From an uncultured Anaerolineales bacterium (lineage in GTDB: Bacteria; Chloroflexota; Anaerolineae; B4-G1), in contig CAZANJ010000002.1 in NCBI GenBank assembly GCA_964486415.1, positions 1 through 27,682 on the forward strand: 27,682 nt of DNA, written 5' to 3'. Shown piece after piece: positions 204 to 16,314 of the stretch. The position numbers and the translations under genes were made by a program. Every line of letters starts with the position of its first letter. Positions within the stretch are counted from its first letter, which is position 1. The notes beneath the pieces are model-generated. The model was not told where the DNA came from and ran no database searches. It saw nothing but the letters and a program-made list of their open reading frames with translations.

Positions 204-2192
204 ATGAGTGTTATTGACGAAGTCAAAGCCAGAATCGATATCGTAGACGTCATCTCGGAGTCGGTTGACCTCCGGAAGTCAGGACGCAACTATAAGGCGC
301 TGTGCCCCTTCCACTCGGAGAAGACGCCCTCTTTCGTTGTCTTCCCCGATAGCCAGCGCTGGCACTGCTTCGGGGCTTGTAACGAAGGCGGGGACGTTTT
401 TTCCTTCGTGATGAAGCATGATGGCTGGGACTTCCGCATGGCTCTGGAGGAATTGGCCCAGCGGGCCGGCGTCGAGCTCCAGCCGCGCACCCCAGAGCAG
501 GCTCAGGCGGCCGAGGAGGCCGATCGCTTGCGGGATATTTTGGATACGGCCTCTCAGTATTATCATCATCTATTGCGCCATGCGCCGGAGGCCGATGGGG
601 CGCGTTCCTACGTCGATAAGCGTAACTTGAGCGACGAAACAGTCGAGGAGTTTCAACTTGGCTACAGCTTGTCGGGCTGGAACAGGGCGCGGGATTATTT
701 GACCGAGCGCGGATACGCGGTCGATGATCTGGTCAAGGCCGGGCTGTTGGTGGAACGTGAGGGCGGCGGTACGTATGATCGCTTCCGTGGAAGATTGATG
801 ATCCCCATCCGAGATCAGCGTGGGCGGGTGATCGGCTTCGGCGCGAGGACACTCGATCCGGACGGTGTGCCCAAGTATCTCAACTCGCCCCAGACGGCGC
901 TCTTCGATAAGAGCACGGTTCTCTTTGGGCTCGATCTGGCGCGTCGGGCCATTCGCCGCGAGGATCGCGTTGTCATCGTCGAGGGATATATGGACGTGAT
1001 GCAGGCGCACCAGGCCGGTTTCGAGAACATCGTGGCGCAGATGGGCACTGCGCTCACCGAGCCGCAGTTGAAACAGCTCCAGCGCTACTCCAAACGGATA
1101 GTGCTCTCGCTCGATCCAGACGCGGCCGGAGTGCGGGCGACGCTGCGCGGCGTCGAGGTGGCGAGTGATACGTTGGAGCAAGAATGGGAGCCGGTCTTCG
1201 ACCCACGCGGCCTGGTGGGATATGAGGGACGTCTGGGGGCCGAGCTACGGGTGCTGAGGCTTCCTCCCGGTCAGGACCCGGATGATCTGATACGCCAGGA
1301 TGCTCAGCGTTGGCTCACCTTGGTCGAGGAGGCTGTGCCGGTGGTCGATTTCTACCTTCATATTCTGATTGAGGGGATTGACCTGGAGGATACCAAGGCC
1401 AAGGCCCGTGTGGTCGATAAAATGCTGCCGGTTTTGAAGGCGGTGGCGAATCCGGTGGAGCGCGAGGATTACGTCCAGAAAATAGCGAGGGCTTTGCGGG
1501 TGGGCGAGCGTGCTGTGCTGTCGCGCCTTAGGAGTAAGAAGGCTCCCGTCGGGAGAGCGGGGCGCAGGGGGCGCGAAAGGCGACAAGATCGGGAGAATGG
1601 ACGGGATGGGGAGCCTAAAAGGGACGGTGTGCGCGATGTGATTATTGAACTTGGGGAGCATTGTCTTTCCTTGTTGCTACAACGTCCTAGCTTGCTCTCT
1701 CAAGTCAATAGGGCTCTCAGGGAAAGGGAACTGGAGCCTTTGCGGATCAAAGACTTTCAGGATGCGGGTCACAGGGCGATTTTAGAAGCGTGGAAAGAGC
1801 TTCTGGATTCCAGGCCATCGGTTTCGAGCGATATGCTGCGCGAGGTACTGCCCAGTGGTCTGGAGGAACAGTTGGATGCGTTGCTCAACCCGGGTGAAGT
1901 CGAGTTTTCGCTTAGCTCCAAGGGGGGAAGCGAGCTTCTGGGTAAAAATAATTCACCTGGCCTTGAGGGATGGGCGGAAGAGCAATTGGTGCGAGATGCT
2001 GTCTTGACCCTGCTGCGATTGCGCGAGCGTCATTTGAGGCAGTTGGGGCAAGAATTGAGTTTCTTAACCCGTGAGGCACAGGATGCCGGGGATATGCGAG
2101 CTGAAGAATATGCCATGGCATGGCTTTCCCATACCGCTACGCTTCGTCAGACGCAGCGGGCATTAGCGCAGTCATGGGGACAAGTGGGGTAG
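204..2192 (+). CDS. dnaG: DNA primase
   Basis: Zn-binding [40 protein letters not shown] motifs VEGYMDV, DPDAAG and DPDD; lies upstream of rpoD. Confidence 0.98.
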
Positions 2193-2224
2193 TCAACGGT
2201 CGATCTGATGTGTTGATAGAGATT

Positions 2225-3823
2225 ATGATGACTGAGAGAGAGAAAGGCTTGACTGTGTCAAATATATCAAGCGGCATTGAGAATCAGCAGTACGTCTCCG
2301 AGGATGCTGAGGGCGAGACATTCGATTCGGTGCTGGTGGAAATCGCCACTGAACAGGAAGAGCCTCTCGTTTGGGATGAGGAGGGCGAGCCCACATTTGG
2401 CGAATTGGAGAAAATCGAGAGTGAGCTGGATGAAGATAAGCACGATGCTCTCCTTGAGTCGACCGATGATCCGGTGAGGATGTACCTGCTCGAAATTGGG
2501 CGCGTGCCCTTGCTGGAGCATCACGAAGAGATATGGCTATCCATCCAACAAGAGACAGAGAAATATCTGGAGAGTGTAAGGGCGGTCCTGGGCGAACCGG
2601 GGGAGATAAAGGAGCGAAAGGTCGTACTCGCTATGGTGGATGTACTTCGTGGGGCATGGTCAGAGGTGCTCTATTGTTGCGATCAGCTTGAGCTACCTTT
2701 GCCAAAACCGACCGCGTTGATGGATGAGGCGCATGCTCTCCGTTATAGCCTTTTGCCCGACATTCACTCCTACCTCTACGAATTTATGGATCGGATTGGC
2801 TGGTCGAGTTCTGATAATGAGTTACAGAATTCGCTCGTCGATCATTGTTTTGATGTTTTTGCCATGTTTATTCTGTTGCCCGAGCCGGTGATGAAATACC
2901 TTCATGAGGAGTGGGGCGATGATGTGGCTTTTCCTGATTTGCCGGCACTCGAACAGATGATCCCTGACGAAGAGACCATCGCGGTGAGTTGGTCCAATGT
3001 GGAAACGCGGGTGCATGAAGCTCGCCAGCTTTTGGCTCAGGCAAACTTGCGGCTGGTGGTTAGTGTGGCCAAGAATTATACTGGTCGGGGCATATCTTTC
3101 CTGGATTTGATCCAAGAGGGGAATATTGGATTGCTGCGGGCGGTTCGGAAATTTGATCATACCAAGGGCTTTCGCTTCTCGACCTATGCCACCTGGTGGA
3201 TTCGCCAGGCGATCAGCAGGGCTATCGCCGATCAAGCGCGTACGATCCGCATTCCCGTGCATATGGTGGAAAAGATCAATCGTTTGATCAAGCTCAAGCG
3301 GCAGATGGTGCAGGAGTTGGGGCGGGAACCGACGACGGAGGAGTTGGCGCTGGAGTCGGATATATTGGATTCTGAGGTGAAAGCCGCGATCCGGATGGAG
3401 CAGGAAGATGATGATACCCTTTCGCCGGTATTGAAGCGCCAATTGCGGCGCGCCACTGCCGAAGTGCGGCGCATCCTGCGTGTTTCCAAGGAGCCTATGT
3501 CGCTAGAGATGCCCGTGGGCTCGGAGGATGACAGCGTTCTGGGAGAGTTTATCGAGGATGAGAACGTGCCCGGGCCGGTCGACGCGACCTCTTATCAGTT
3601 GCTAAAGGAACAGGTCCGCTCATCGCTCGACATACTCAGCGAACGAGAGCGGGCGGTTCTGGAGATGCGCTTTGGCTTGAAGGATGGAGAGACTCGTACC
3701 TTGGAGGAAGTGGGGCGAGTGTTCGGTGTGACACGTGAGCGGGCTCGACAGATCGAATCGAAGGCCTTGCGCAAGTTGCGCTACCCCGGCCGCAGTCACA
3801 AACTGCGCGATTTCCTCAGTTGA
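2225..3823 (+). CDS. rpoD: primary sigma70 factor; start uncertain (ATG 2225/2228 or GTG 2255); the ORF-track extension to 2120 overlaps dnaG
   Basis: Region 1.2 DDPVRMYL, region 2 [33 protein letters not shown], region 4 TLEEVG..FGVTRER.RQIE.KALRKLR. Confidence 0.95.
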
Positions 3824-3834
3824 GGGGGACTATT

Positions 3835-4686
3835 TCAGGGCATCGATGGCAGTGCTGTGAGCAAGGCGTCATCGAAGTAAACGGCGTGGTAGATCTGTGC
3901 GAACTGCGTTTCCGCGAAGATACAGACCGTTGCTTGGCCTGATTGTCCTATTGTGACCTCTGGAGAGAGGAGCATCACCACCCCATCTTCCTGGTTGATG
4001 ATCTGTTCTTGGCCCCATTGCGCTTCATCACATCCCGCGTTACCTTGAGGGTCTATCCCGGCCTTTACGATGTATCCCCCCTCCGTCTCCTTGACGAATC
4101 CCCTGGCGTTTACCTGGAACTGTAGGACGGTGTTGGGCTCCGCCTGCACTGTTTGGAATACCCAAGCTTGCAATTTCACCCAGGGCGTGGTGTCGATCTT
4201 GAGCGTCGATCCGTTGATCTGGCGTTGAGGATCGGTGGCGGCCTGGAAGCGAGGGGCGGCGTAGGAAGTTTCGGGGTCGAATCCTTCACCCGGCTTCCAA
4301 TTTACGAACCCACCCGTCTGCCAACCGGGAATACTGTTTCTACTGAGGCGGTCGAAGGTTGGATTTTCGAGGGCGATGGGGGCTGGCGTGGGAGGAAGTG
4401 TCACGGTCATACGTTCAACGGGCGTGGCCCAGGAGGTGGGTAGTTCGGTCGGTGTGCTGGTCGGGCTGGGCGTGAGTGTGGCGTATGGCGTGGAGCTTGG
4501 TGTAGGCGTCCAGGTGGGCGGCTCAGTGATGGTCGGTGTAAGTGTAATCGTCGGTGTCTCGGTGGGGGGTAGGCTAGGAGATGCCGGTTGTGTCAATGAA
4601 CTACGCACGGCGTTCACCATCGCGCCTAGGATAATAATATCGGCCAATGCCAGAATTGCTACAATTATCCATTTTCTCCGGGACAT
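3835..4686 (-). CDS. membrane-anchored protein with a Pro/Thr-rich linker and a C-terminal beta-rich (carbohydrate-binding-like) domain
   Basis: Basic N-terminus plus one hydrophobic helix, then PT repeats, then an LENPTFD..PGW-type domain; SD GAGGAG upstream. Function is inferred. Confidence 0.75.
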   Translation of the reverse strand: MSRRKWIIVAILALADIIILGAMVNAVRSSLTQPASPSLPPTETPTITLTPTITEPPTWTPTPSSTPYATLTPSPTSTPTELPTSWATPVERMTVTLPPTPAPIALENPTFDRLSRNSIPGWQTGGFVNWKPGEGFDPETSYAAPRFQAATDPQRQINGSTLKIDTTPWVKLQAWVFQTVQAEPNTVLQFQVNARGFVKETEGGYIVKAGIDPQGNAGCDEAQWGQEQIINQEDGVVMLLSPEVTIGQSGQATVCIFAETQFAQIYHAVYFDDALLTALPSMP

Positions 4687-4786: not shown

Positions 4787-4815
4787 TTGACATCATTGCT
4801 GAGATGTGGTAAACT
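4787..4815 (+). promoter_or_regulatory. sigma70 promoter of the nuo operon
   Basis: TTGACA-17 nt-TAAACT with a TGTG extended -10 element. Confidence 0.75.
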
Positions 4816-4882
4816 CTATCCCGTTGTAGCCTTCTCGTCGAAAGCCGATTGAATACCATAGTGATCACCTTGGAGGAGCACA

Positions 4883-5239
4883 TTGCTGAATCAGTTTACT
4901 TTCGTCGGTGTTTTTCTTGTTATTGCGCTTGCTTTTGGTGTTGCCCCGATTGCTATTGCCTTCTTCTTACGCCCCAAGAAACCCAATTCTCGTAAAGCGT
5001 CTACCTATGAGTGCGGTCTAGAACCCTACGGTGATGCTTGGGTTCAATTCAAAGCACAGTACTATATTTTCGGCCTGGCCTTTGTCATCTTTGATGTCGA
5101 GGCCGTTTTGTTGTTGCCATGGGCTGTGGCATATCACGCGTTGGGGCTTTATGCCGTGATCGAGGCTATGATTTTCATCCTCATTTTGCTTGGCGCTCTG
5201 GTTTATGTCTGGCGCAAGGGCGCGCTTGAGTGGATGTAA
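4883..5239 (+). CDS. nuoA: complex I subunit A (TTG start)
   Basis: YECG loop, FVIFDVE, WRKGALEW; SD GGAGG. Confidence 0.96.
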   Translation: MLNQFTFVGVFLVIALAFGVAPIAIAFFLRPKKPNSRKASTYECGLEPYGDAWVQFKAQYYIFGLAFVIFDVEAVLLLPWAVAYHALGLYAVIEAMIFILILLGALVYVWRKGALEWM

Positions 5240-5313
5240 TTTATCGCGTGGCGTGATGCAACTGAGGATAGGGCGATTAGATTAGCGATCGACGCTGGGA
5301 TGGAGCTTTTTCT

Positions 5314-6501
5314 ATGGAATTTATCAAGGACTTGATCCTCAATATCGGTGGCTGGTTGCAAGGGCTATTGATGGGCACAGGGTTGGCTCCCTCTTGGGTG
5401 CAGGTGATTATGCACCTCATCGGTGGAGTTGCGTTGGCCATTGTCCCATTGGTAGCAGTGATTTTCCTCATCTGGGCAGCCCGTAAGATTGTGGGGCGAA
5501 TGCAGGATCGGCTCGGCCCCAATAACTCCGGTCCTTACCCCGGACCTTACGCTATTTTCCAGACTTTTGCTGATGCCGTCAAGATGCTGACAAAGGAAGA
5601 TGTTGTCCCCACCGCGGCCGATCGGGGAGTTTTCAACATTGCTCCAGTGGTGATCTTGGCTTCCGCCGTGCTGGTTTGGGCTGTCATTCCCTTGGGCAAA
5701 GGGCTCATCGGCGCCGATCTAAACATCGGCGTTTTTTACATTCTCTCCATTGGCTCATTGAGCCTGATCGCGCTGATGATGGCGGGATTGGGGTCCAATA
5801 ACAAGTATGCTTTAGTGGGCGCATTGCGTGCGATAGCCAGTCTGATCAGTTATGAGGTACCGCAGGTCATCGCTGTTATGACGGTGGTCATGGTCTCCGG
5901 CTCCTTCTCTATGCAACAGATCGTCGAAGCGCAGCAAGTGCCTTTTATATTCGTGATGCCCCTGACCGCTTTTCTATTCTTCGTCGGTTCCCTGGCCGAG
6001 GTAGGCCGGCAGCCCTACGACCTGACGGAGGCGGATTCGGAGATTGTGGCCGGTTACTTCGTCGAGTACAGCGGGATGAAGTTTGGGCAGTTCTATCTAT
6101 CGGAGTTTATGAATAACTTTGCCCTTGCCGTCATCACCGCGACACTCTTCCTCGGCGGGTGGCGTGGGCCATTTGTGGAAAGTGTGCCTGTTCTGGGATC
6201 GCTTTGGCTTCTGCTCAAGGCATTGCTCGTCTTCTTCGTTCTCCTGTGGTTGTGGGGTACGATGCCCCGCTTGCGCATTGACCACATGTTGAGCTTCAAT
6301 TGGAAGTTTTTGGTTCCCTTGGCGCTGGCGAACTTGTGTGTAGTGGCCTTAGTAGGCAAAATAGTGCCAATGAGCGCTCCTCCTTTAGTGCGTGCGGGAG
6401 CGTTTTTGGGGTCCAATATCCTGTTGGTATTGATTGTGTTGGTAGTGCTGGCGATTGCCGGTCGCCGAGCTCGGCGGCAGCAGCTAGAGGTTAGTGGCTA
6501 G
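5314..6501 (+). CDS. nuoH: complex I subunit H
   Basis: QDRLGPN, ADAVKMLTKE, ISYEV, RQPYDLTEADSEIVAGYFVEYSG, PRLRIDH. Confidence 0.96.
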   Translation: MEFIKDLILNIGGWLQGLLMGTGLAPSWVQVIMHLIGGVALAIVPLVAVIFLIWAARKIVGRMQDRLGPNNSGPYPGPYAIFQTFADAVKMLTKEDVVPTAADRGVFNIAPVVILASAVLVWAVIPLGKGLIGADLNIGVFYILSIGSLSLIALMMAGLGSNNKYALVGALRAIASLISYEVPQVIAVMTVVMVSGSFSMQQIVEAQQVPFIFVMPLTAFLFFVGSLAEVGRQPYDLTEADSEIVAGYFVEYSGMKFGQFYLSEFMNNFALAVITATLFLGGWRGPFVESVPVLGSLWLLLKALLVFFVLLWLWGTMPRLRIDHMLSFNWKFLVPLALANLCVVALVGKIVPMSAPPLVRAGAFLGSNILLVLIVLVVLAIAGRRARRQQLEVSG

Positions 6502-6511
6502 GGATTAGACC

Positions 6512-7015
6512 ATGCAAATTACACTTCAACAAATCTTGTTCATTATCTTAGGCGCGATCACGTTGGGGGCAGCCTTGATGGTGGTGACGCGTCGTAATGT
6601 TTTCCACGCTGCACTCTTTCTCATCTTATCCTTCTTCGGTGTGGCAGGGCTTTATGTATTGCTAGAGGCCCCTTTTCTCGCCGCCGTACAGCTGTTCATT
6701 TACATCGGCGGTATCTCGATCCTGATTATCTTCGCCATTATGCTCACGCAGAACATGATGGATCCCAACTTGCCGGGAGCCAATCGCCAGTGGTGGGCTG
6801 CGGCCTTGGTGGCCGTGGCTATTTGCGGCATTCTGGGGTGGGTGGTGTTGAACCGTAATTGGGGGACGGCTAGCGCAGAGGTGCCTCAAAACACCATCAC
6901 GATTTTGGGTACGGCTCTGATGGACCCGGAGGGATTGTTGTTGCCTTTTGAGGTGGCCTCGGTCCTTCTCTTAGTCGCTCTCGTCGGTGCTGTGACTATT
7001 GCAAGGGAGCAATGA
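6512..7015 (+). CDS. nuoJ: complex I subunit J
   Basis: QLFIYIGGISILIIFAIML and LLPFEVASVLLLVAL. Confidence 0.95.
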   Translation: MQITLQQILFIILGAITLGAALMVVTRRNVFHAALFLILSFFGVAGLYVLLEAPFLAAVQLFIYIGGISILIIFAIMLTQNMMDPNLPGANRQWWAAALVAVAICGILGWVVLNRNWGTASAEVPQNTITILGTALMDPEGLLLPFEVASVLLLVALVGAVTIAREQ

Positions 7016-7018
7016 TTT

Positions 7019-7327
7019 ATGGTTCCTTTAGCTTGGTATCTTATTCTGGCAGCAGCTTTGTTCTGCATAGGATTGTATGGCGTTCTCTCGCGGCGTAATG
7101 CTGTGGCGATTTTGATGGGCGTCGAGCTGATGCTGAACGCTGTCAACATCAATCTGGTCGCCTTTTGGCGCCATCTGGAGCCGGGAGCGGCGACAGGGCA
7201 AGCCTTCGCACTTTTCGTCTACGTCGTCGCGGCTGCCGAGGCAGCCGTGGGCTTGGCGCTCATAATAGCCGTGTGGCGCACCCGTGACACTGTTGTCCTC
7301 GAAGACATCGATTTGCTCAAAGGTTAA
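7019..7327 (+). CDS. nuoK: complex I subunit K
   Basis: [10 protein letters not shown] and [11 protein letters not shown]; both conserved Glu residues are present. Confidence 0.96.
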
Positions 7328-7341
7328 ACACCGAGGTGACT

Positions 7342-9753
7342 ATGGAGATTCTCAACCTTGCTTGGCTGATACCCCTCTTCCCATTTCTTGCATTTGTTTC
7401 AATAGCGATCTTCGCCCACCGAAGTCGCCGATTGAGCCACCAGTTGACCATTGGTGGTATCGCCTTTGCTTTTCTGATCGCGCAGATTGTCTTTTGGCGG
7501 GCGGTGACTTTGCCGGTGGGGGGCGGCGAGCATGCCTTCGAGTCATCGGCCATCCACTGGCTGGTTGCGGGTGAAGAACGGCTCACACTTGGCGTCTACG
7601 TCGATCCAGCCACGGCGGTGATGCTCTTTATGGTGCCCTTGGTCTGTATGATGATCTTCATCTACAGCGTCGGCTACATGAACTTCGGCACACCGGAGGT
7701 CGATCCCCGTTACAGCCGTTTCTTCTGTTACCTCTCCCTCTTTGCCACCGGCATGTTGGGAATGGTGGTTTTTAATAACCTGCTGGCCTTCTTCATCTTC
7801 TGGGAGATTATGGGGACTTGTTCTTATCTGTTGATCGGCTTCTGGTATGATAAAAGTTATCCCGATCCCGATAAAATCACCCCTAAGGAGGCCGGGCTGA
7901 AGGCCTTCATCGTCACCAAGATCGGCGATTTGTTCTTTATGCTTGGCTTGGCCTTGCTCTACGCCGAGGTGGGATCGCTGGCCTACCGGGACATCTTCGC
8001 CGCCGAGACGCTGGAGCATCTGGCCCATGCTAACTTCCTGGGAACTCAATGGTCGCTGGCCTCCGTGATCGCCCTGCTCTTGTTTGGCGGCACTGTCGGT
8101 AAGAGCGCACAGTTCCCGCTCCACGTCTGGCTGCCCGACGCGATGGAGGGGCCCACACCTGTCTCCGCCCTCATCCACGCCGCAACGATGGTTTCGGCCG
8201 GCGTCTTCCTCGTGGTGCGCTCCTTCCCGATTTTCGCTGCGGTCGAGGGCACCCATATGACGATTGTGGCGACCATTGGGGCTTTCACGGCCATCTTTTC
8301 GTCCGTCATCGCCATCGCGCAAGATGATATAAAGGGAGTGCTGGCCTTCTCTACTATCAGTCAGTTGGGATATATGGTTGCTGCGTTGGGTATCGGCGCT
8401 TATGTGGCTGGAGCCTTCCACCTCATCACTCACGCTTTCTTCAAGGCGCTCTTGTTCCTCAGTTCCGGCTCGGTGATCCACGGTATGGAACATGGACATC
8501 ATCACGTCCACGAGCATGCGGAGCACCACAATGATGATAATGAGAATCATGAGGAGCATGATGAGCACGGCGAGCACGAGGAAGAGGAGTGGTTCAACCC
8601 CAATGACATGAAGAATATGGGCGGCCTGGCAAAACGTATGCCGCGTACCGCTTTGCCATTTCTCGCCGGTGGGTTGGCTCTCTCCGGTTTTCCCCTGTTC
8701 ACTGCCGGTTTCTGGTCGAAGGATGAGATACTGGCCCAGGCTTACGAGCTATCCCCCGCCGTCTTCTGGACGCTGGGTATGGCCGCTGTGCTGACCGCTT
8801 TCTACACCGCGCGTCAACTCTGCTTGACCTTCCTGGGGGAGCCGCGCACCGAGGCCGCCAAGCACGCGCCGGAGAGTGTGCCATCTATGACGACCCCCCT
8901 GGCTATCCTGGCTGTCTTCGCCATTATTCTGGGCTGGGCTGGTATTCCGGAGCATTTCCCCGTCATCGGTGGGATTATCCCCAACTGGGTCCATCACTTC
9001 GTCGGATCGACAATTGCGGGGGGGCACGCTGAGCATGCAACGAAAGTAGCCGGGCATCTCTCGGAGGCCGCAGAGGCAGGCTTTGTATGGCAGCCATTGG
9101 TGATGAGCATCCTCTTCGCGCTGGGCGGGTTGACGTTGGGGTGGTTGGTTTATGGCCGCAAGCCGATGGTAGCCGGTGAGATGGATCGGGTGGAAGCAGC
9201 AATGCGCAAAGTGGGCCTGGGATGGCTGTACGAAGCTATGCGCAACCAATTCTACTTCGATGAAATCTACCAGACGATAGTTGTGCGCCCCTCCATCTGG
9301 TTGGCGGACGTTTTTGACACGTTCGACTATGGCCGCGAAGAGGGCAAGCATGGCGTGGTAGATGGCATAGTGACCTTGGCCGGGAAGATAGGAAGGGCTG
9401 TGTCCGACATATCCGGATGGCTTGATGCCAAAATTGTGGATGGATTGGTCAACCTGGTCGGGGGCTTAGGAAAGGCCATATCCTGGGTCAGTGGTTGGCT
9501 CGACGTCAACATCGTGGATGGGTTGGTCAATCTGGCGGGCAGCGCTGGAGCCCTGCTATCCAATGGGCTCAACAGCTTCGATCTCACTGTGGTGGACGGC
9601 GCCGTCAACGGCGTCGCCGATGTCGTCATGGGCGGTGGGAAGGCAATCCGCCCCATTCAGACCGGTAAAGTTCAAAACTATCTGCTGCTGGCATCCCTGA
9701 TGGTGCTGGCATTAATCTTGACATTCTTTGTGATATTGTTCTTGCAAATCTAG
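7342..9753 (+). CDS. nuoL: complex I subunit L with a His/acidic insertion and a greatly extended lateral helix (alternative GTG start at 7336)
   Basis: FWEIMG, GKSAQFPLHVWLPDAMEGPTPVSALIHAATMV, HAFFKALLFL, FWSKDEI, QTGKVQNY. Confidence 0.96.
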   Translation: MEILNLAWLIPLFPFLAFVSIAIFAHRSRRLSHQLTIGGIAFAFLIAQIVFWRAVTLPVGGGEHAFESSAIHWLVAGEERLTLGVYVDPATAVMLFMVPLVCMMIFIYSVGYMNFGTPEVDPRYSRFFCYLSLFATGMLGMVVFNNLLAFFIFWEIMGTCSYLLIGFWYDKSYPDPDKITPKEAGLKAFIVTKIGDLFFMLGLALLYAEVGSLAYRDIFAAETLEHLAHANFLGTQWSLASVIALLLFGGTVGKSAQFPLHVWLPDAMEGPTPVSALIHAATMVSAGVFLVVRSFPIFAAVEGTHMTIVATIGAFTAIFSSVIAIAQDDIKGVLAFSTISQLGYMVAALGIGAYVAGAFHLITHAFFKALLFLSSGSVIHGMEHGHHHVHEHAEHHNDDNENHEEHDEHGEHEEEEWFNPNDMKNMGGLAKRMPRTALPFLAGGLALSGFPLFTAGFWSKDEILAQAYELSPAVFWTLGMAAVLTAFYTARQLCLTFLGEPRTEAAKHAPESVPSMTTPLAILAVFAIILGWAGIPEHFPVIGGIIPNWVHHFVGSTIAGGHAEHATKVAGHLSEAAEAGFVWQPLVMSILFALGGLTLGWLVYGRKPMVAGEMDRVEAAMRKVGLGWLYEAMRNQFYFDEIYQTIVVRPSIWLADVFDTFDYGREEGKHGVVDGIVTLAGKIGRAVSDISGWLDAKIVDGLVNLVGGLGKAISWVSGWLDVNIVDGLVNLAGSAGALLSNGLNSFDLTVVDGAVNGVADVVMGGGKAIRPIQTGKVQNYLLLASLMVLALILTFFVILFLQI

Positions 9754-9838
9754 CAAGTAGGCAAGTGGGCAAGTGGGCTAGTAGGCAAGTGAACAAGTAG
9801 CATAGATAAGTCGGACACTTGCAGACCTGCAAACTTGC
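9753..9838. repeat. octamer array: 6 direct units (GCAAGTRG-like) followed by 3 inverted units (..ACTTGC)
   Basis: gcaagtag gcaagtgg gcaagtgg gctagtag gcaagtga acaagtag ... acacttgc agacctgc aaacttgc. Confidence 0.8.
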
Positions 9839-9863
9839 AGACTCAAAAGAAGGAGAGCATACT

Positions 9864-11390
9864 ATGTTTCCAATTCTAAGCGTTACCCTGTTTGCCCCGC
9901 TGGTGGGCGCCCTACTCATTTTGGTCATCCCGCGTGAGGATGTTAAGACAATCCGGCGGATGGGGACCGCGTTTGCTTTCCTGACGCTCATCCTCACAAC
10001 TATCATCTGGGTGAGTGTGGCGCAGTCAGGGGCCGGCGTTATGCAGTTTGAGGAGAACTATCCCTGGATCAAGGCATTCAATGTGCGGTTTCACCTCGGG
10101 GTGGATGGTCTCAGTGCACCTTTGCTCTTCTTGACTGCCCTGTTGACCACTCTTGTGACGTTCTACTCATCTTATACCATTGACGACCGGGTCAAGGAAT
10201 ACTATTTCTTGTTCCTGTTGCTTGAGATGGGTATGAGCGGTGTATTCCTTTCCCTGGATCTGGTGCTGTTCTACGTCTTCTGGGAGATCGGTTTGGTGCC
10301 GATGTTCTTGCTTATCGGTGTGTGGGGCGGAAAGCGCCGCCTGTACGCGGCCATCAAGTTCTTCCTCTACACGCTCGTGGGCAGCGTGGCGATGTTGCTG
10401 GCCATCATCGGCGTTTATTTCCAAACCGGCACCTTCGACATATTGGAAGCGGCTGCGGCACAACCCTTCGCTGGCAATTTCACTTGGGCTAGTGTAGCTT
10501 TTTGGGCCTTCTTCGTCGCCTTTGCCATCAAGGTGCCAGCTTTCCCCTTCCACACTTGGTTGCCAGACGCTCATACAGAGGCGCCCACTTCGGGTAGTGT
10601 CATTCTGGCGGGCGTCTTGCTGAAGTTGGGGGCTTATGGTTTGATGCGTATCGCGCTGCCATTCTTCCCAGCACAGTTCAAGTACTTTGTCGTGAACGTG
10701 CCAATTGTTCCCATTATGGCGGTGATGAGTATTGCCTACGGAGCGATGGTCTGTATGGCGCAGTGGGACCTTAAACGGCTGGTTGCTTACTCCTCGGTGG
10801 CTCATATGGGCTACGTCACACTGGGGCTATGCGCGGCAGCGGCTGGCATCGGGATGCTGGATGATCCGGCGAACCTCAGCGCGGCGGCCTCGGGCCTCAG
10901 CGGCGCGGCATTCCAGATGTTCGCGCACGGCATCATCACGGGAGGGATGTTTTTCCTGGTCGGTATGATCTACGATCGGGCCCACACGCGCGACCTGAAG
11001 GTCTTTGGCGGACTCGGTAAGCAGATTCCTTATTATTACGGGATTGTGATGGTTACCGGGTTTGCGTCCCTGGGGCTTCCCGGCTTGGCTGGCTTCTGGA
11101 GTGAGTTCTTCGTCTTCCGGGGCACAATCCGCTTTATCCCCTTGGCCGCTTTCATCGGCGTGATCGGAGTAGTCTTCACCGCTGCCTATATCCTGTGGAA
11201 AGTTGTACAGCACCTCTTCTTGGGGGATCTGGACAAGGAGAAGTGGGGCAAGCTGACCGACATGACCTGGTGGGAAAAGGTAACAATGTGGCCTTTGGTG
11301 ATCATCATGGTTTTCCTCGGTATCTATCCCGCTCCCCTGCTGGATATGTTCAACGCTGCGCTCACAGGGGTTTTGCGGGCGCTGCCGTAA
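9864..11390 (+). CDS. nuoM: complex I subunit M (start set at ATG 9864 after SD AAGGAG)
   Basis: LGVDGLS, FWEIGLVPM, AIKVPAFPFHTWLPDAHTEAP, LLKLGAYG, DLKRLVAYSSVAHMG, FWSEF. Confidence 0.96.
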   Translation: MFPILSVTLFAPLVGALLILVIPREDVKTIRRMGTAFAFLTLILTTIIWVSVAQSGAGVMQFEENYPWIKAFNVRFHLGVDGLSAPLLFLTALLTTLVTFYSSYTIDDRVKEYYFLFLLLEMGMSGVFLSLDLVLFYVFWEIGLVPMFLLIGVWGGKRRLYAAIKFFLYTLVGSVAMLLAIIGVYFQTGTFDILEAAAAQPFAGNFTWASVAFWAFFVAFAIKVPAFPFHTWLPDAHTEAPTSGSVILAGVLLKLGAYGLMRIALPFFPAQFKYFVVNVPIVPIMAVMSIAYGAMVCMAQWDLKRLVAYSSVAHMGYVTLGLCAAAAGIGMLDDPANLSAAASGLSGAAFQMFAHGIITGGMFFLVGMIYDRAHTRDLKVFGGLGKQIPYYYGIVMVTGFASLGLPGLAGFWSEFFVFRGTIRFIPLAAFIGVIGVVFTAAYILWKVVQHLFLGDLDKEKWGKLTDMTWWEKVTMWPLVIIMVFLGIYPAPLLDMFNAALTGVLRALP

Positions 11391-11467
11391 CTAAAACGTG
11401 AAAACGTAAAGCGTAGGTGTGACTCAAAACATCACATTCGCGCTTTATGTATAGTAGGAGGACAACG

Positions 11468-12943
11468 TTGTTCGGAGAACCGACACTCACGTTAGGCCAG
11501 ACGCTATGGCTGCTCTCGCCGGAACTGGTGCTTCTCTTGACAGGCTTCCTCATTATGGGACTGGATGCTATCCATCCGCAAAAAGAGGAAAAGCGCTGGG
11601 TGCCTTATGTTGCCTTGGGAGGGCTAGCCGTTGCCCTGATCGCATCTATCACCCTTTGGGGTTGTAACACCAGGGTGCTCTTCATGTTTTCCTGTGACCC
11701 CTTCTCGTTGGTCGTTAATATGGTGGCTATGTTGGCTGTGGGGCTTGTGATACTCACATCCGACCTGTACATTCGAGTGCATAGTCGGTATCAGGGTGAG
11801 TTTTACGCTCTCCTGCTCTTCTCAGCTCTAGCCATCTGCCTGTTGGGTGGGGCGACTAACTTGATTATGGTCTTCTTGGCTTTTGATTTCCTGAGCATCA
11901 CGTCATATATTCTCACCGGCTACTTGCGTGAGGATCAAAAGTCAACAGAGGCTGCGATCAAGTATTTTCTCTACGGCGCAGCTCTCTCCGCAATAATGCT
12001 TTATGGAATGTCCTGGTTCTATGGGCTGACCGGCTCCACAGACCTGAGCGGTATTGCAATGGTTCTCATGGAAGGGGAGCGTGTACTGCGTCCAATCATC
12101 TTGCCAGCCTTGATCTTTATCGCCGCTGGCTTCGCCTTCAAAATCGCCGCTGTGCCATTTCACCAATGGGCTCCTGATGCTTATGAAGGTGCCCCGACTC
12201 CGGTAACGGCTTTTCTCTCTGTCGGGCCCAAGATCGGTGGCTTCGCTGTCATCCTACGGGTGCTTTTAACCGCCTTGCCTGGTGATCTGGTGAACCTGGC
12301 GATGGATTGGCGGGCACTGCTGATGGCGGTCTCTATGCTCACGATGACGGTCGGCAATCTGGTAGCGCTTTGGCAGAAGAACATCAAACGCCTGCTGGCT
12401 TACTCCAGCATCGCGCAGGCCGGTTACATCCTTATCGGCGTGGTGGCAGCCTCTCCTCGGGGAGCGACGGCGGTTTTGCTCTACTTGGCGGCTTATGTGC
12501 TGACCAACTTGGGCGTTTTCGCCGCTATCATCGCTTTCTCCAACCAGGTCGGGTCCGATGACATAGACGATTACGCGGGACTGAGCAAGCGGGCTCCTGG
12601 GCTGGCCTTGGTGATGATTGTCTGTCTGCTCTCGTTAGGAGGCCTCCCACCGACGGCCGGCTTCATCGGCAAGCTGTGGCTCTTCTCCGCGGCGATCGAG
12701 GATGGGTTAATCTGGCTCGCTGTGGTCGGCGTGATCAACAACGTCATCTCTCTATCCTACTACTGGAAGGTAATCCGCGCGATGTACCTCACCCCTGCGC
12801 AGAACGGGGAACCGCTGTCTACCTCGTCCGCGCTGGCTGTTGCGCTGGGGGTGTCTGTGGTGGGCGTTCTGGTCGTGGGAGTCTTCCCTGGCCCGCTTCT
12901 GGCACTGCTCCAGGCAGCAGCGCTGACCTTTTTCGGCGGGTGA
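11468..12943 (+). CDS. nuoN: complex I subunit N (TTG start after SD AGGAGG)
   Basis: EAAIKYFL, FKIAAVPFHQWAPDAYEGAPTP, NIKRLLAYSSIAQAGY, GFIGKL. Confidence 0.95.
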   Translation: MFGEPTLTLGQTLWLLSPELVLLLTGFLIMGLDAIHPQKEEKRWVPYVALGGLAVALIASITLWGCNTRVLFMFSCDPFSLVVNMVAMLAVGLVILTSDLYIRVHSRYQGEFYALLLFSALAICLLGGATNLIMVFLAFDFLSITSYILTGYLREDQKSTEAAIKYFLYGAALSAIMLYGMSWFYGLTGSTDLSGIAMVLMEGERVLRPIILPALIFIAAGFAFKIAAVPFHQWAPDAYEGAPTPVTAFLSVGPKIGGFAVILRVLLTALPGDLVNLAMDWRALLMAVSMLTMTVGNLVALWQKNIKRLLAYSSIAQAGYILIGVVAASPRGATAVLLYLAAYVLTNLGVFAAIIAFSNQVGSDDIDDYAGLSKRAPGLALVMIVCLLSLGGLPPTAGFIGKLWLFSAAIEDGLIWLAVVGVINNVISLSYYWKVIRAMYLTPAQNGEPLSTSSALAVALGVSVVGVLVVGVFPGPLLALLQAAALTFFGG

Positions 12944-12967: not shown

Positions 12968-12995
12968 TTGTCTTCTGAGGGGATTGTGTTATAAT
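12968..12995 (+). promoter_or_regulatory. internal sigma70 promoter in front of the Fo genes
   Basis: TTGTCT-16 nt-TATAAT with a TGTG extended -10 element. Confidence 0.6.
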
Positions 12996-13005
12996 GTTTC
13001 CCGCT

Positions 13006-13503
13006 ATGGATACCGGAAATAAACAAGGGAACGAACTACAGGCCGTCATCCTCCCCTCTTTGGGGCTGGGTATTCAGATCGCTGGTGTGGTGGTAGTGGC
13101 GGTGCTGGGCAGCCTGTTCCTGGGGCTGTGGATTGACCGCCGACTGGGGAGCACTCCCTGGGCCACGCTGCTTTTGTTGGGCCTGGGTACGCTGGTGGCC
13201 ATGATCAGCTGCTACCGCGCGATGGCCCCGGTGATCGCACATCTGGCAGCCGGTCAGGAGGTCGAGTGGGGAGAATCCCTGCGCACCCTGGCTTTCGTCG
13301 CTCAGACGGAGCTGGTGGTCACCACTCCGCTGCTGGTCGGTCTCTTGCTGGGTCTGTGGGTGGACGTTCGATTGGATACTAGTCCATGGGTGACCTTGGC
13401 TCTGACGGTTTTGGGGGCTGTGGCGGGGTTGGTGGGCGCATGGCGCTTGCATTCTGCATTTCTGAAACGAACGGCTAAAGGTGATCAAGAGGAGAATCTG
13501 TAA
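13006..13503 (+). CDS. AtpZ/ATPase gene-1-like membrane protein with two tandem domains (alternative start 12994)
   Basis: Two copies of the G.W.D....(T/S).PW hairpin motif, GLWIDRRLGSTPW and GLWVDVRLDTSPW; first gene of the atp cluster. Confidence 0.75.
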   Translation: MDTGNKQGNELQAVILPSLGLGIQIAGVVVVAVLGSLFLGLWIDRRLGSTPWATLLLLGLGTLVAMISCYRAMAPVIAHLAAGQEVEWGESLRTLAFVAQTELVVTTPLLVGLLLGLWVDVRLDTSPWVTLALTVLGAVAGLVGAWRLHSAFLKRTAKGDQEENL

Positions 13504-14324
13504 TGGAACTTGTGCGCGAGTTGCCCCACATCTCAATGGCTGCTGAGACGCTCTTTCACATCGGTCCTTTGCCCGTCACCAATTCCCTTTTTACTACGTG
13601 GATTTGCATGTTGCTCCTCATTGTTCTCTCATGGTTGTTCTCCAAGAGTATGAAGCTTGTTCCCACTCCCTTGCAGAACCTGATCGAGACGGCCATTGAG
13701 ATGTTTTACGACGGCGTAGCCAAAGCGAGGGCCAGCGAGCATGCTGAACTTTTTCTTCCCCTTGCTGGCACCCTTTTCTTCTTCATCCTCCTCGCCAACT
13801 GGATGGGTTTGCTGCCGTTCTTTGGATCTGTTGGATTCATAATGGAGCACCATGGTGAAGAGATGTTCGTTCCTTTGTTGCGCCCGGCCAATGCTGACCT
13901 GAACACCACGCTTGCTCTGGCACTCTTCTCAGTGATCGCCACCCAGATCTACGGGATCAAGGTGCAAGGCTTCTTCGGCTACGCCAACCGATTTATTAGA
14001 GTGGACAGATTCGTGGAGTTCTTCAAGCGACGGCGCGACCCTATGTTGCTTATGAATGGCGTAATCGATCTCTTCATCGGGGCGTTGGAGATGCTTGACG
14101 AGCTGACGAAGCTTCTCTCCTTCTCCTTCCGTCTGTTCGGCAATATCTTCGCCGGTGAGGTGTTGCTGATCGTGATTTCTATGCTGCTTCCCTACGTCGC
14201 ACCGTTGCCTTTTATGGCACTGGAGCTTTTCGTCGGTTACATTCAGGCTCTTATTTTTGCAAGTCTGACGCTGGTCTTCATGAAGCAAGCAACAGCTGCC
14301 CATGGTCACGACGAAGGGCACTGA
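13503..14324 (+). CDS. atpB: ATP synthase Fo subunit a
   Basis: LLRPANADLNTT, SFSFRLFGNIFAGE with the essential Arg, ELFVGYIQALIF. Confidence 0.96.
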   Translation: MELVRELPHISMAAETLFHIGPLPVTNSLFTTWICMLLLIVLSWLFSKSMKLVPTPLQNLIETAIEMFYDGVAKARASEHAELFLPLAGTLFFFILLANWMGLLPFFGSVGFIMEHHGEEMFVPLLRPANADLNTTLALALFSVIATQIYGIKVQGFFGYANRFIRVDRFVEFFKRRRDPMLLMNGVIDLFIGALEMLDELTKLLSFSFRLFGNIFAGEVLLIVISMLLPYVAPLPFMALELFVGYIQALIFASLTLVFMKQATAAHGHDEGH

Positions 14325-14450: not shown

Positions 14451-14669
14451 ATGGATAAGAATCTGATAGCAGCGTTGACTATCGTTCTGGGGGCTATTAC
14501 GCCGGCTGCGATGATTGGCCGCTTCTCGACCGAGGCGATGCGATCGCTGGGGCGCAATCCAGAGTCTGGCGCTCCGATCAGCGCCAATCTGATCCTGGCG
14601 TTGGCCCTGAGCGAGGCGATTGCCATCTATTCCTTGGTGGTCGCTCTGGCCATCAAGTTCGTGGAGTAA
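14451..14669 (+). CDS. atpE: ATP synthase Fo subunit c
   Basis: GRNPE loop and the ion-binding Glu in LSEAIAIY; strong SD AAGGAGG. Confidence 0.95.
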   Translation: MDKNLIAALTIVLGAITPAAMIGRFSTEAMRSLGRNPESGAPISANLILALALSEAIAIYSLVVALAIKFVE

Positions 14670-14685: not shown

Positions 14686-15201
14686 TTGGAAGCCCTAGGG
14701 ATTAACCTATATGTTCTGATCGCCCAGGTCATCAACCTTGCCATTCTGTTCCTCGTGCTCCGTTCTTTGCTCTTCAAGGGTTTTCTGAAGAAGATGGAAG
14801 AGCGCAAGCAGAAGATCCAGCAGGGCCTAGAGGAGGCCGAGCGCGCCCAAGAAAAGGCGACGCGAGCCGAGGCGATCTACCAGGAGCGCATGGAGCAGAT
14901 TGAGCGGGAGCGGGAAGCCCTCATTGCCGAGGCAAGGGAAGAGGCCGAGCGGCTGCGGGCAGAGATGGTGGCGCAGGCGCGAGAGGATGCCCGTGAAGAG
15001 GCGCGCCGCATCATCGCGCAGGAACGGGAAGAGTTCGAGGCCGAGCGCCAGCAGGCTATCGCCGATATGCACAGCCAGATGGTCAGCCTGGTTATGACTG
15101 CCACCCGCAAGGTGGTCGAGGAGGGCATAGACGAGCAGGTGCAACACCGGCTGATTGATCGCTTCCTGGACGAGACGGGCGCGCTGGGGAGAATCCAATG
15201 A
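14686..15201 (+). CDS. atpF: ATP synthase Fo subunit b (TTG start after SD AGGAGG)
   Basis: EALGINL..LIAQVINL TM helix followed by a long E/A/R coiled coil. Confidence 0.92.
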   Translation: MEALGINLYVLIAQVINLAILFLVLRSLLFKGFLKKMEERKQKIQQGLEEAERAQEKATRAEAIYQERMEQIEREREALIAEAREEAERLRAEMVAQAREDAREEARRIIAQEREEFEAERQQAIADMHSQMVSLVMTATRKVVEEGIDEQVQHRLIDRFLDETGALGRIQ

Positions 15202-15701
15202 ATAGTAACAGCAATCCTGCCGAGGCCTGGGAAGGTGACCTGAAAACAATCGCGGAGCGGCTGCAGCGTCGAAATCTGATATCGCCGGAGCAAGCCACGA
15301 CCTTGGAAGCGCTGACCAGTGAGTTTGAGAGACTTTCCAAGTACGAGCCCGGTATGGCGATGCCGCTGGTAGCCACGATATTCTGGGCTGTCGAGTTCGA
15401 GCGGCTGTCACAGCAGCAGGCACAGGCCGCCGGGATGGTGGCGTGGGTGCGCAGCGCGGTTCCACTCACTGGGGAAGAGCGCGAACAGCTCAGACGCCGT
15501 CTACGAGAACATTTCGGTCAAGATTTTGTCCTGCGCGTGGAGGTTGACCCGTCACTCATTGGCGGCCTGGTGGTTCGAGCCAAAGACCGGGTCTTCGACA
15601 GCAGCGTTGCTGGCAGGTTGGACGCCCTCGATGAACGCCTGAGAACCGCTGTTGAAGAACAGATATCACTTGCTCAGGAACTCCAAGAGACAGATGAATA
15701 A
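15198..15701 (+). CDS. atpH: ATP synthase delta-like protein (canonical C-terminal domain, unrecognised N-terminal domain)
   Basis: VRSAVPL..L...L...VDPSLIGGLVVR..D.V.DSSV.GRL. Confidence 0.85.
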   Translation: MNSNSNPAEAWEGDLKTIAERLQRRNLISPEQATTLEALTSEFERLSKYEPGMAMPLVATIFWAVEFERLSQQQAQAAGMVAWVRSAVPLTGEEREQLRRRLREHFGQDFVLRVEVDPSLIGGLVVRAKDRVFDSSVAGRLDALDERLRTAVEEQISLAQELQETDE

Positions 15702-15715
15702 AAAGGAGTAGCCGT

Positions 15716-16024
15716 ATGCCACAAATTCCCGAATTGGCGAACGCCGTTCTCTTTTTTGCTCCCGGCTTCCTGCTCGTGCAGACGCTCTACCTTGGCGGCA
15801 TTGCACGCAGACGCTCGAATTTTGAAACGGTGGTCTGGAGCGTCATCGTCGGTGTGTTCATCCGTTGGGCCTCCGCGGAGCTTGTCGGACGACTTAGTTT
15901 GGGGATCGAGCCAGGCTTGGATCTGGAGATAGCTCTCCTGGGCCTGACCCTCGCTGCGGGTGTGATTGTACGAACGTTTGTCTCCCTGTTTGCCTTCGGG
16001 AGAGAGGAAGAGGAACGGGTATAG
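15716..16024 (+). CDS. small hypothetical membrane protein (about 3 TM), possibly DUF6338-like
   Basis: SD AAGGAG; hydrophobic, with FFAPGFL...SNFETVVWS. The family resemblance is from memory only. Confidence 0.6.
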   Translation: MPQIPELANAVLFFAPGFLLVQTLYLGGIARRRSNFETVVWSVIVGVFIRWASAELVGRLSLGIEPGLDLEIALLGLTLAAGVIVRTFVSLFAFGREEEERV

Positions 16025-16141: not shown

Positions 16142-16218
16142 AAGATAATATCTCACTGTAGTTGTTTATCAATCCGGTCTGGCAAGTAGTTGATAAGATA
16201 GTTCAACCGCAGAAATGT

Positions 16219-16255
16219 AAGAGCAGTTCGTACTCAGTTTGTGCGGACTGCTCTT
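16219..16255 (+). terminator. 15-bp stem-loop, possible terminator or stabiliser after the atp cluster
   Basis: AAGAGCAGTTCGTAC-tcagttt-GTGCGGACTGCTCTT, fully paired allowing two G-U pairs; the U-tract is weak. Confidence 0.45.
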
Positions 16256-16314
16256 GTGGTTTTCTGGCTGACGGAGAAAGCCTAATCTGCTGAATAGAGG
16301 GAGGAACCGAAAAG

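Follow-up and report, generated by a model that had tools for sequence, protein, structure and literature searches.

Complex I whose genes are divided between two loci has been described in Chloroflexi. In cultured members with two nuoM genes, nuoBCDI lie apart from the main operon and nuoC and nuoD are fused, according to a study of Lost City Chloroflexi that cites Chadwick et al. 2018 (PMC7117926). For its own Chloroflexi metagenome-assembled genome (MAG), that study gives the same separation and the same nuoCD fusion, on two contigs. A related locus is described here from an uncultured Anaerolineales bacterium (assembly GCA_964486415.1, contig CAZANJ010000002.1, positions 1 to 27,682); this whole stretch of 27,682 nucleotides is called the window. 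Its nuoA-H-J-K-L-M-N cluster is, judged by sequence, the complete proton-pumping membrane arm of NDH-1/complex I. Together with a separately encoded nuoB-CD-I operon, the arm very probably makes up a split complex I in the window genome. A separate small operon for the quinone/iron-sulfur (Fe-S) module is the rule in the class Anaerolineae, and the arrangement is already known.

Two further systems resemble the locus in part. Marine actinomycetes (Salinispora, Streptomyces, Kocuria) carry an extra partial nuoAHJKLMN operon beside a complete nuoA-N operon, which has been read as a marine adaptation (PMC6676996). Complex I of Candidatus Manganitrophaceae and Nitrospira has 26-residue insertions in the lateral helix of NuoL, one per added pump subunit, and a single insertion of this kind is read as marking one additional pump subunit; in some Manganitrophaceae, NuoL has the insertion and there is no extra subunit to match it (PMC9040806).

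Membrane-arm genes of the window

The three antiporter-like subunits NuoL, NuoM and NuoN, together with NuoH, NuoA, NuoJ and NuoK, are all identified and form the membrane-arm set of complex I (Table 1). NuoH scores 315 bits against the NCBIfam equivalog NF004741 (cut-off 305), its top matches in the PDB are NuoH/ND1/NdhA of complex I, and the quinone-cavity loop motifs MQDRLGPN and DLTEADSEIVAGYFVEYSG are intact in its translation. Read by eye, NuoA has the YECG loop and the FDVE motif; both membrane glutamates of NuoK are present. NuoL, NuoM and NuoN exceed the TIGR01974, TIGR01972 and TIGR01770 cut-offs, respectively. The top PDB match of NuoL is cyanobacterial NdhF1 (6hum_F) and the best NCBIfam match of NuoN is a cyanobacterial NdhB-type model. 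Patterns for the glutamate of transmembrane helix (TM) 5 and the lysine of TM7 were matched by NuoL and NuoM; NuoN did not match them and is assigned by family score alone. The window NuoL is 96% identical in protein sequence to that of the closest species, where the DNA is 92-95% identical, consistent with purifying selection. With motifs intact and both NuoH and NuoK above equivalog cut-offs, the subunits look functional. Compared with NuoH proteins of 320-345 aa, the window NuoH has a C-terminal extension (aa ~355-395) made of an extra hydrophobic segment and an Arg-rich tail, which alignments of many Anaerolineae homologues cover.

None of the sizeable open reading frames (ORFs) of the window, which are either Pfam-assigned or without match, encodes NuoB, C, D, I, E, F or G or a hydrogenase subunit. 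A Chloroflexi plasmid or chromid with nuo genes was sought as a source of queries and none was found; the nuo operons of Bacteroides and Bacillus supplied real query sequences. With these, tblastn of NuoB, C, D, CD and I gave no match in the 27.7-kb window, and a motif scan for redox-module subunits found nothing there. An earlier note on this stretch had claimed a nuoA-H-J-K-L-M-N cluster without nuoB, C, D, I, E, F and G, which is confirmed by Pfam, NCBIfam, motif scan and tblastn alike. The gaps it gave, 74 bp between nuoA and nuoH and 10 bp between nuoH and nuoJ, are exact, and they are too short to leave room for gene remnants. The upstream gene is divergent, as had been said. The note had also given the operon its own strong promoter: a promoter-like site does lie 68 bp ahead of nuoA, and its strength is plausible from the match to the sigma-70-like consensus alone. 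The contig was recovered independently in ENA, JGI and Logan assemblies of microbial-mat samples, with even coverage of ~27x in one read run.

Table 1. Features of the window, with positions counted from its first nucleotide.
Feature	Position	Strand	Basis
Divergent upstream gene, 283 aa; signal anchor and long Pro/Thr-rich linker, predicted secreted	3835-4686	-	ORF and translation
Putative promoter: TTGACA, 17 nt, TAAACT, TG upstream	4787-4815	+	sigma-70-like consensus scan, 10/12 matches
Ribosome-binding site GGAGGAG, before nuoA TTG start	4872-4878	+	sequence read directly
nuoA-H-J-K-L-M-N cluster	4883-12943	+	Pfam and NCBIfam
nuoA, 118 aa, TTG start	4883-5239	+	PF00507, E=2e-36
nuoH, 395 aa	5314-6501	+	PF00146, E=2e-106
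nuoJ, 167 aa	6512-7015	+	PF00499, E=1e-38
nuoK, 102 aa	7019-7327	+	PF00420; NF004322 135 bits (cut-off 128)
nuoL, 805 aa, ~190 aa above canonical NuoL	7336-9753	+	NF005141 597 bits (cut-off 556)
His/Asp/Glu-rich NuoL loop insertion (HGHHHVHEHAEHHNDDNENHEEHDEHGEHEEEE), aa 383-420, between GSVIH and DMKNMGGL motifs	8482-8595	+	
Array of four 26-residue amphipathic units, NuoL aa 673-772	9352-9651	+	unit hidden Markov model, hydrophobic moment
nuoM, 523 aa, sole nuoM	9819-11390	+	TIGR01972 558 bits
nuoN, 498 aa	11447-12943	+	TIGR01770 413 bits (cut-off 333)
atpI-like, two ATPase_gene1 repeats	12994-13503	+	Pfam
atpB (a)	13503-14324	+	Pfam, gene calls
atpE (c)	14451-14669	+	Pfam, translation
atpF (b)	14686-15201	+	Pfam, gene calls
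atpH (delta)	15198-15701	+	Pfam, gene calls
102-aa ORF between atpH and terminator-like hairpin	15716-16024		no family match
Strong terminator-like hairpin, 18-pair stem, closes the + strand gene run	16216-16258	+	

The quinone-reducing module in Anaerolineae

NuoH was used to scan one genome per GTDB species, and the best 80 loci were taken with flanks of up to 10 kb on each side. All 80 belong to Anaerolineae/Chloroflexota; the top one is an 'Anaerolineales bacterium' MAG whose NuoH is 98% identical to that of the window. The order nuoA-H-J-K-L-M(-M)-N, with one or two nuoM genes, is found in 80 of 80 loci. Measured from one tblastn match to the next, A and H are separated by a median of 101 bp (maximum 276) and H and J by 260 bp (maximum 458). 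No NuoB, C or D homologue occurs in the 1.39 Mb of flanks. Since the split order is constant across these 80 genomes, the clean absence is a class-wide gene order and not a deletion in the window genome.

Next to no credence can be given to the view that the absence is an artefact of assembly or binning, or that the cluster is a remnant decaying after loss of B, C, D and I. Although the source is a metagenome contig, independent assemblies agree, depth is even across the region, the gene order is identical in 80 genomes and no reading frame is broken; NuoH and NuoK exceed their equivalog cut-offs and NuoL is conserved at the protein level beyond its DNA. A case of apparent decay does exist in a related closed MAG, the 3.07-Mb 'Anaerolineales bacterium' assembly CP070814.1 (L181, 2664229-2686099), which has only a 44-aa nuoK fragment and a truncated nuoL beside an IS110 transposase; either the copy was disrupted or the assembly is rich in frameshifts. 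Another departure is seen in L004 (9012-11096; also L005), where a 694-aa membrane pyrophosphatase-like gene, its motifs judged by eye, lies between nuoJ and nuoK on the same strand.

The redox genes occur in Chloroflexota as an orphan block. A protein search with Bacillus NuoD returned Bacillaceae only. Many fused NuoCD proteins were found by a search of representative proteins, and a fused NuoCD query led to proteins of 820-835 aa that combine NuoB, NuoC and NuoD, one of which (P0370) is labelled 'Chloroflexi bacterium'. In the Chloroflexi MAG GCA_019690095.1, a fused NuoB-C-D gene (835 aa) is followed by a gene for a NuoI-like 2x[4Fe-4S] protein; the block is flanked by dnaK/hrcA/ybeY and Ham1-type genes, with no further nuo gene within 10 kb. 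Another such block (B, CD, I), likewise an orphan, is present in an ENA assembly. JGI metagenome contigs were scanned with a family-specific motif at the end of the NuoC domain, which gave at least 80 loci; no contig from the window's own samples is among the matches listed. B-C-D-I are contiguous in 80 of the 80 loci listed, with the subunits confirmed by Pfam. Forty-four have nuoB and a fused nuoCD, 7 have a fused nuoBCD, and the remaining 31 are cut by contig ends. Membrane-arm genes are absent from the available flanks of 78 of the 80 listed loci (at least 5 kb is available upstream in 27 of the 78, downstream in 23, and on both sides in 14). In 39 of the 80, a gene for an Fe-S carrier of the NUBPL/Ind1/ApbC type (PF10609 and PF01883) lies 3' of the block (e.g., L107, 6042-7118), which fits a dedicated Fe-S module operon.

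Two linking loci carry both blocks. One (L124) reads nuoA-H-J-K-L-M-M-N-B-CD-I on one strand; the other (L161) reads nuoBCD-I-A-H-J-K-L. Their NuoH and NuoL are 57-61% identical to those of the Anaerolineae MAG loci and their CD proteins 52-64% identical to those of the orphan loci. Because these two loci join the blocks, and their NuoH, NuoL and CD proteins are ordinary members of the two families, the orphan block and A-H-J-K-L-M-N are taken to be partner halves of one enzyme.

The orphan loci vary in other respects. The fused NuoBCD polypeptides (820-835 aa) found in some Chloroflexi account for 7 of 51 complete loci (L093/L094, 10001-12508; L095, L161 and others). Upstream, 32 loci have a divergent gene for an ArsR-type regulator, and 22 have a gene with a PSP1 domain close by. 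A separate and odd locus is L091/L092 (GCA_029980365.1, JARXNO010000636.1): nuoJ-K-L-M-N, nuoA, fused nuoCD, a small ORF, nuoH, Fer4, a second J, K and several antiporter-like genes, with no NuoB domain called there. Three look-ups were set aside: P0128, an odd double cluster; P0300, a complete archaeal operon; and P0478, a truncated nuoK/L beside IS110.

These loci change the interpretation given in the earlier note. It had held that homologues of B, C, D and I are always kept beside H, which fails in 80 of 80 Anaerolineae genomes. It fails as well for the ndh genes of cyanobacteria and chloroplasts. That an A-H-J-K-L-M-N set 'fits neither class', whether complex I-like enzymes and group 4 hydrogenases or Mrp antiporters, is not supported: the known split complex I of Anaerolineae has the same arrangement, and the set is present in marine actinomycetes (PMC6676996). 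The suggestion of a redox head supplied in trans is upheld in that the head must be encoded elsewhere in the genome; most probably it is nothing exotic and consists of ordinary nuoB, fused nuoCD and nuoI. A simple split operon with an orphan nuoBCD-I block, the outcome the note had set against its own proposal, is at the level of the clade what the orphan blocks and the two linking loci represent. A pump without any quinone/Fe-S module would, if true, have implied a new class of energy-converting enzyme. For annotation, pathway callers that rely on nuo genes being contiguous will label Anaerolineae wrongly, either as having 'partial' enzymes or as lacking complex I.

Other membrane enzymes share part of this gene set. 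Homologues of the antiporter-like subunits (PF00361), and small subunits like NuoK and NuoJ, are found in the Mrp (Mnh/Pha) antiporters and in the group 4 [NiFe] hydrogenases (Mbh, Ech, Hyf). Mrp has neither NuoH nor NuoA and requires MrpB, E, F and G; group 4 hydrogenases keep NuoB/D-like subunits in the same gene cluster. The window proteins score best as NuoH, L, M and N, and far lower on Hyf or Mrp models. For none of the seven is Mrp the best NCBIfam model, MrpA and MrpD being weaker and below cut-off. An Mrp-type antiporter was ruled out on this ground and by the presence of NuoH and NuoA. A group 4 hydrogenase or formate hydrogenlyase was likewise rejected, with low Hyf scores and no large or small hydrogenase subunit in the window or within 10 kb in the 80 relatives.

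It is very improbable that the seven proteins act alone, as an Mrp-like cation/proton transporter independent of redox chemistry, a role put forward for the partial operon of marine actinomycetes. The same gene set has been described as a stand-alone 'proton pump' in Salinispora, Streptomyces and Kocuria (PMC6676996), and the microbial-mat source of the window, with related sequences in runs from hypersaline lakes, could suit such a role. The actinomycete operon is, however, an extra copy beside a full operon, whereas here the set is the class-wide form with partner blocks; the quinone-site motifs of NuoH and NuoA are conserved, and the NCBIfam assignments do not favour Mrp.

Several points weigh against a split complex I in the window genome itself. 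The window belongs to a sublineage, here called clade W, whose NuoM proteins share at least 62% identity with one another and no more than 47% with those of all other Anaerolineae. A B-CD-I block of the window genome, or of any clade W member, was not retrieved in the searches made; the orphan blocks and the two linking loci belong to lineages of Anaerolineae outside clade W, where NuoH is ~45% identical to that of the window, and fused nuoCD was observed in those other lineages only. That the window genome carries its own nuoB-CD-I block is what we infer. We also infer the assembly of the parts into one complex, the donor (ferredoxin versus NADH) and the identity of the quinone. The window's contigs have a depth of 26.1-27.6 in run X1, 12.8-14.5 in X2 and ~4-5.5 in X4. 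Contigs at a depth of 28.6-30.1 in X1 (14.8 in X2, 4.4-6.6 in X4) have collinear NuoB-to-NuoD and NuoD-to-NuoI matches to two orphan loci, in segments of only 80-120 bp. About ten populations in run X1 carry NuoB/D-like genes, and for this reason the depth match is no more than weakly compatible with a quinone module in the same organism. Finally, six clade W relatives have genes directly upstream of nuoA that leave room for another partner. In L017 (1503-9221; also L016, L019, L027, L051 and L069), the genes for aldehyde:ferredoxin oxidoreductase (AOR), Fer4, an HdrA-MvhD fusion, HdrC-like and HdrB-like proteins and a polyferredoxin lie there, on the same strand as nuoA.

It is mainly because of these Hdr-like and polyferredoxin genes that a second possibility is kept alive: in clade W the arm might use a non-canonical head, either Hdr-like/polyferredoxin, AOR-linked or hydrogenase-like, in place of NuoB/CD/I. 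In clade W, genes for AOR and a 4Fe-4S protein are repeatedly present beside the cluster: they follow nuoN in the closest species (L003, 18178-20575) and the atp genes in L179 (18636-21027). The missing block of clade W could be read in the same way. Such a head is nevertheless improbable. The NuoH quinone-cavity loop and the NuoA YECG loop, which contact NuoD/NuoB, are kept, and all other Anaerolineae lineages use the orphan B-CD-I block; collinear B-D-I contigs of matching depth occur in the same run. By Pfam and NCBIfam assignment, no Hdr-like or AOR gene adjoins the cluster within the window, and AOR/ferredoxin genes beside the cluster could just as well serve to supply the electron donor.

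In the split complex I, which is the preferred reading, the quinone-reducing module (NuoB, fused NuoC-D and NuoI) would be made from a separate small operon elsewhere in the genome. NuoH and NuoA would dock this module, so that the products of both gene sets form one enzyme. Electrons would pass from the NuoI and NuoB clusters to quinone in a pocket formed by NuoD, NuoB and NuoH. Quinone reduction would drive protons across the membrane by way of NuoH/A/J/K and of the antiporter-like subunits N, M and L, the latter linked by the lateral helix of NuoL. No nuoEFG genes accompany either the membrane-arm cluster or the orphan B-CD-I block, so the enzyme would be of the 11-subunit type. As this type is without nuoEFG, its donor is probably reduced ferredoxin rather than NADH; the analogy with cyanobacterial NDH-1 likewise makes reduced ferredoxin the likeliest candidate. 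The recurring AOR/ferredoxin neighbours make the donor of an EFG-less complex I testable in this group.

The NuoL lateral helix and neighbouring genes

The lateral helix of the window NuoL is unusually long. By the unit model, its helix units begin at aa 673, 695, 721 and 747, with support from hydrophobic-moment peaks, and the anchor helix TM16 (aa 779-804) follows. Between the FDxxY motif and the last TM lie 147 aa; a canonical NuoL has ~60 aa there, and 24 typical two-nuoM Anaerolineae have 86-88 aa. Counted as units, canonical NuoL has one, typical two-nuoM relatives have two, and the window has four, that is, three extra. AlphaFold2 (AF2) with an alignment of 112 sequences gave a NuoL model with a mean predicted local distance difference test (pLDDT) score of 85, in which aa 674-771 form one continuous helix followed by the anchor TM; pLDDT is only 50-65 in this stretch. 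A single-sequence AF2 model of the C-terminus was discarded (mean pLDDT 40). Tandem Repeats Finder found no DNA-level repeat in the helix region, so the units have diverged at the DNA level in the window genome.

The number of units varies within clade W. Among 112 NuoL clusters (proteins P0399-P0518), two units are present in 15, three in 58, four in 34 and five in 2; one NuoL has about seven. Another has three nearly identical consecutive units, which points to recent duplication. At the 16 clade W loci of known context (L003-L008, L013-L019, L034, L179, L180), 13 have one nuoM and three have two. The window nuoM is the orthologue of the copy next to nuoL, the first copy being the closer one in 43 of 43 two-nuoM loci. 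Under a rule of one unit per pump, the one or two nuoM genes always predict a shorter helix than clade W has. Candidate explanations are that each complex holds NuoM more than once, that further antiporter-like genes lie unlinked, that the helix reaches over NuoK/J/A/H or other partners, or that its conformation is other than a rod. A clade-specific pumping arm of variable length, in which the single NuoM is used repeatedly or antiporter-like subunits from unlinked genes are added, or else a helix that clamps other partners, is unlikely. On the second of these readings, the longer helix might allow the arm to couple to ferredoxin modules of the AOR/Hdr type, instead of or besides the standard quinone module. 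If unit number does report the number of pump modules, clade W would offer a natural experiment on what sets the stoichiometry and length of the pumping arm.

NuoL also has a His/Asp/Glu-rich loop insertion between TM segments (Table 1), inside which the AF2 pLDDT falls below 50 at aa 405-413. His-rich loops of 15-66 aa are common at this position in Anaerolineae NuoL, compared with 4 aa in Bacillus. Metal binding by the loop is possible.

Genes for ATP synthase follow the nuo cluster. The atpI-like gene begins 50 bp past nuoN, and no F1 alpha, gamma, beta or epsilon gene is present after atpH in the window cluster. The nuo and atp run encodes almost only integral membrane proteins. A consensus scan placed a putative promoter at 12968-12995 in the nuoN-atpI gap, and a scan for terminator-like sites between nuoN and atpI found none. 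In many relatives, L179 included, atpB comes after nuoN. In the closest species the 92-95% DNA identity extends from dnaG through nuoN, and synteny stops exactly at the nuoN stop codon; a single conserved operon of nuo and atp F0 genes was rejected as a firm claim for this reason. The atp genes are probably a frequent neighbour and a separate unit.

The rest of the window is largely housekeeping. Six-frame ORFs with Pfam and NCBIfam assignments place dnaG (204-2192) and rpoD (2120-3823) at its start, on the + strand. The divergent gene that follows matched no Pfam or NCBIfam family; it is the left border and lies outside the nuo system. Beyond the terminator-like hairpin is murE, and the remaining window holds rho, fbp, cdsA, uppS, frr, pyrH, tsf and rpsB on the opposite strand.

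Comparison with known systems

Cyanobacterial and chloroplast NDH-1 (e.g., PDB 6hum) resembles the enzyme proposed for the window in having 11 core subunits without NuoEFG, and NdhF1 is the best solved match for NuoL. Its ndh genes are dispersed among several loci, and ferredoxin serves as its electron donor. The cyanobacterial split, into ndhC-K-J, ndhA-I-G-E and separate ndhH, D, F and B, differs from that of the window. Cyanobacterial NDH-1 also differs in having extra subunits specific to oxygenic phototrophs, and it has neither a fused NuoCD nor a lateral-helix repeat array.

The partial operon of marine actinomycetes has a gene set and order identical to those of the window, and B, C, D, I, E, F and G are likewise absent from the cluster. 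In actinomycetes it is an extra copy, whereas in Anaerolineae this form is typical of the class, and the clade has an orphan block dedicated to it as partner. Manganitrophaceae and Nitrospira share the 26-residue lateral-helix insertion; they have one, compared with one to six extra units in the lineage of the window, and their operons are not split in this way.

The closest system is the '2M' complex I of Chloroflexi (Chadwick et al. 2018, via PMC7117926). It shares with the window a single membrane-arm operon, nuoBCDI apart from it, lateral-helix insertions in NuoL, and the class Anaerolineae. In the 2M system nuoC and nuoD are fused, and neither block includes nuoEFG. The window differs in having one nuoM, not two, and for want of the second nuoM it is not classed as 2M. 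Three extra 26-residue units are present in its NuoL, compared with one in the 2M enzymes, and it belongs to a distinct sublineage. Thus the gene split itself is not new, and the helix array and the AOR/Hdr neighbours of clade W are the part still worth attention.

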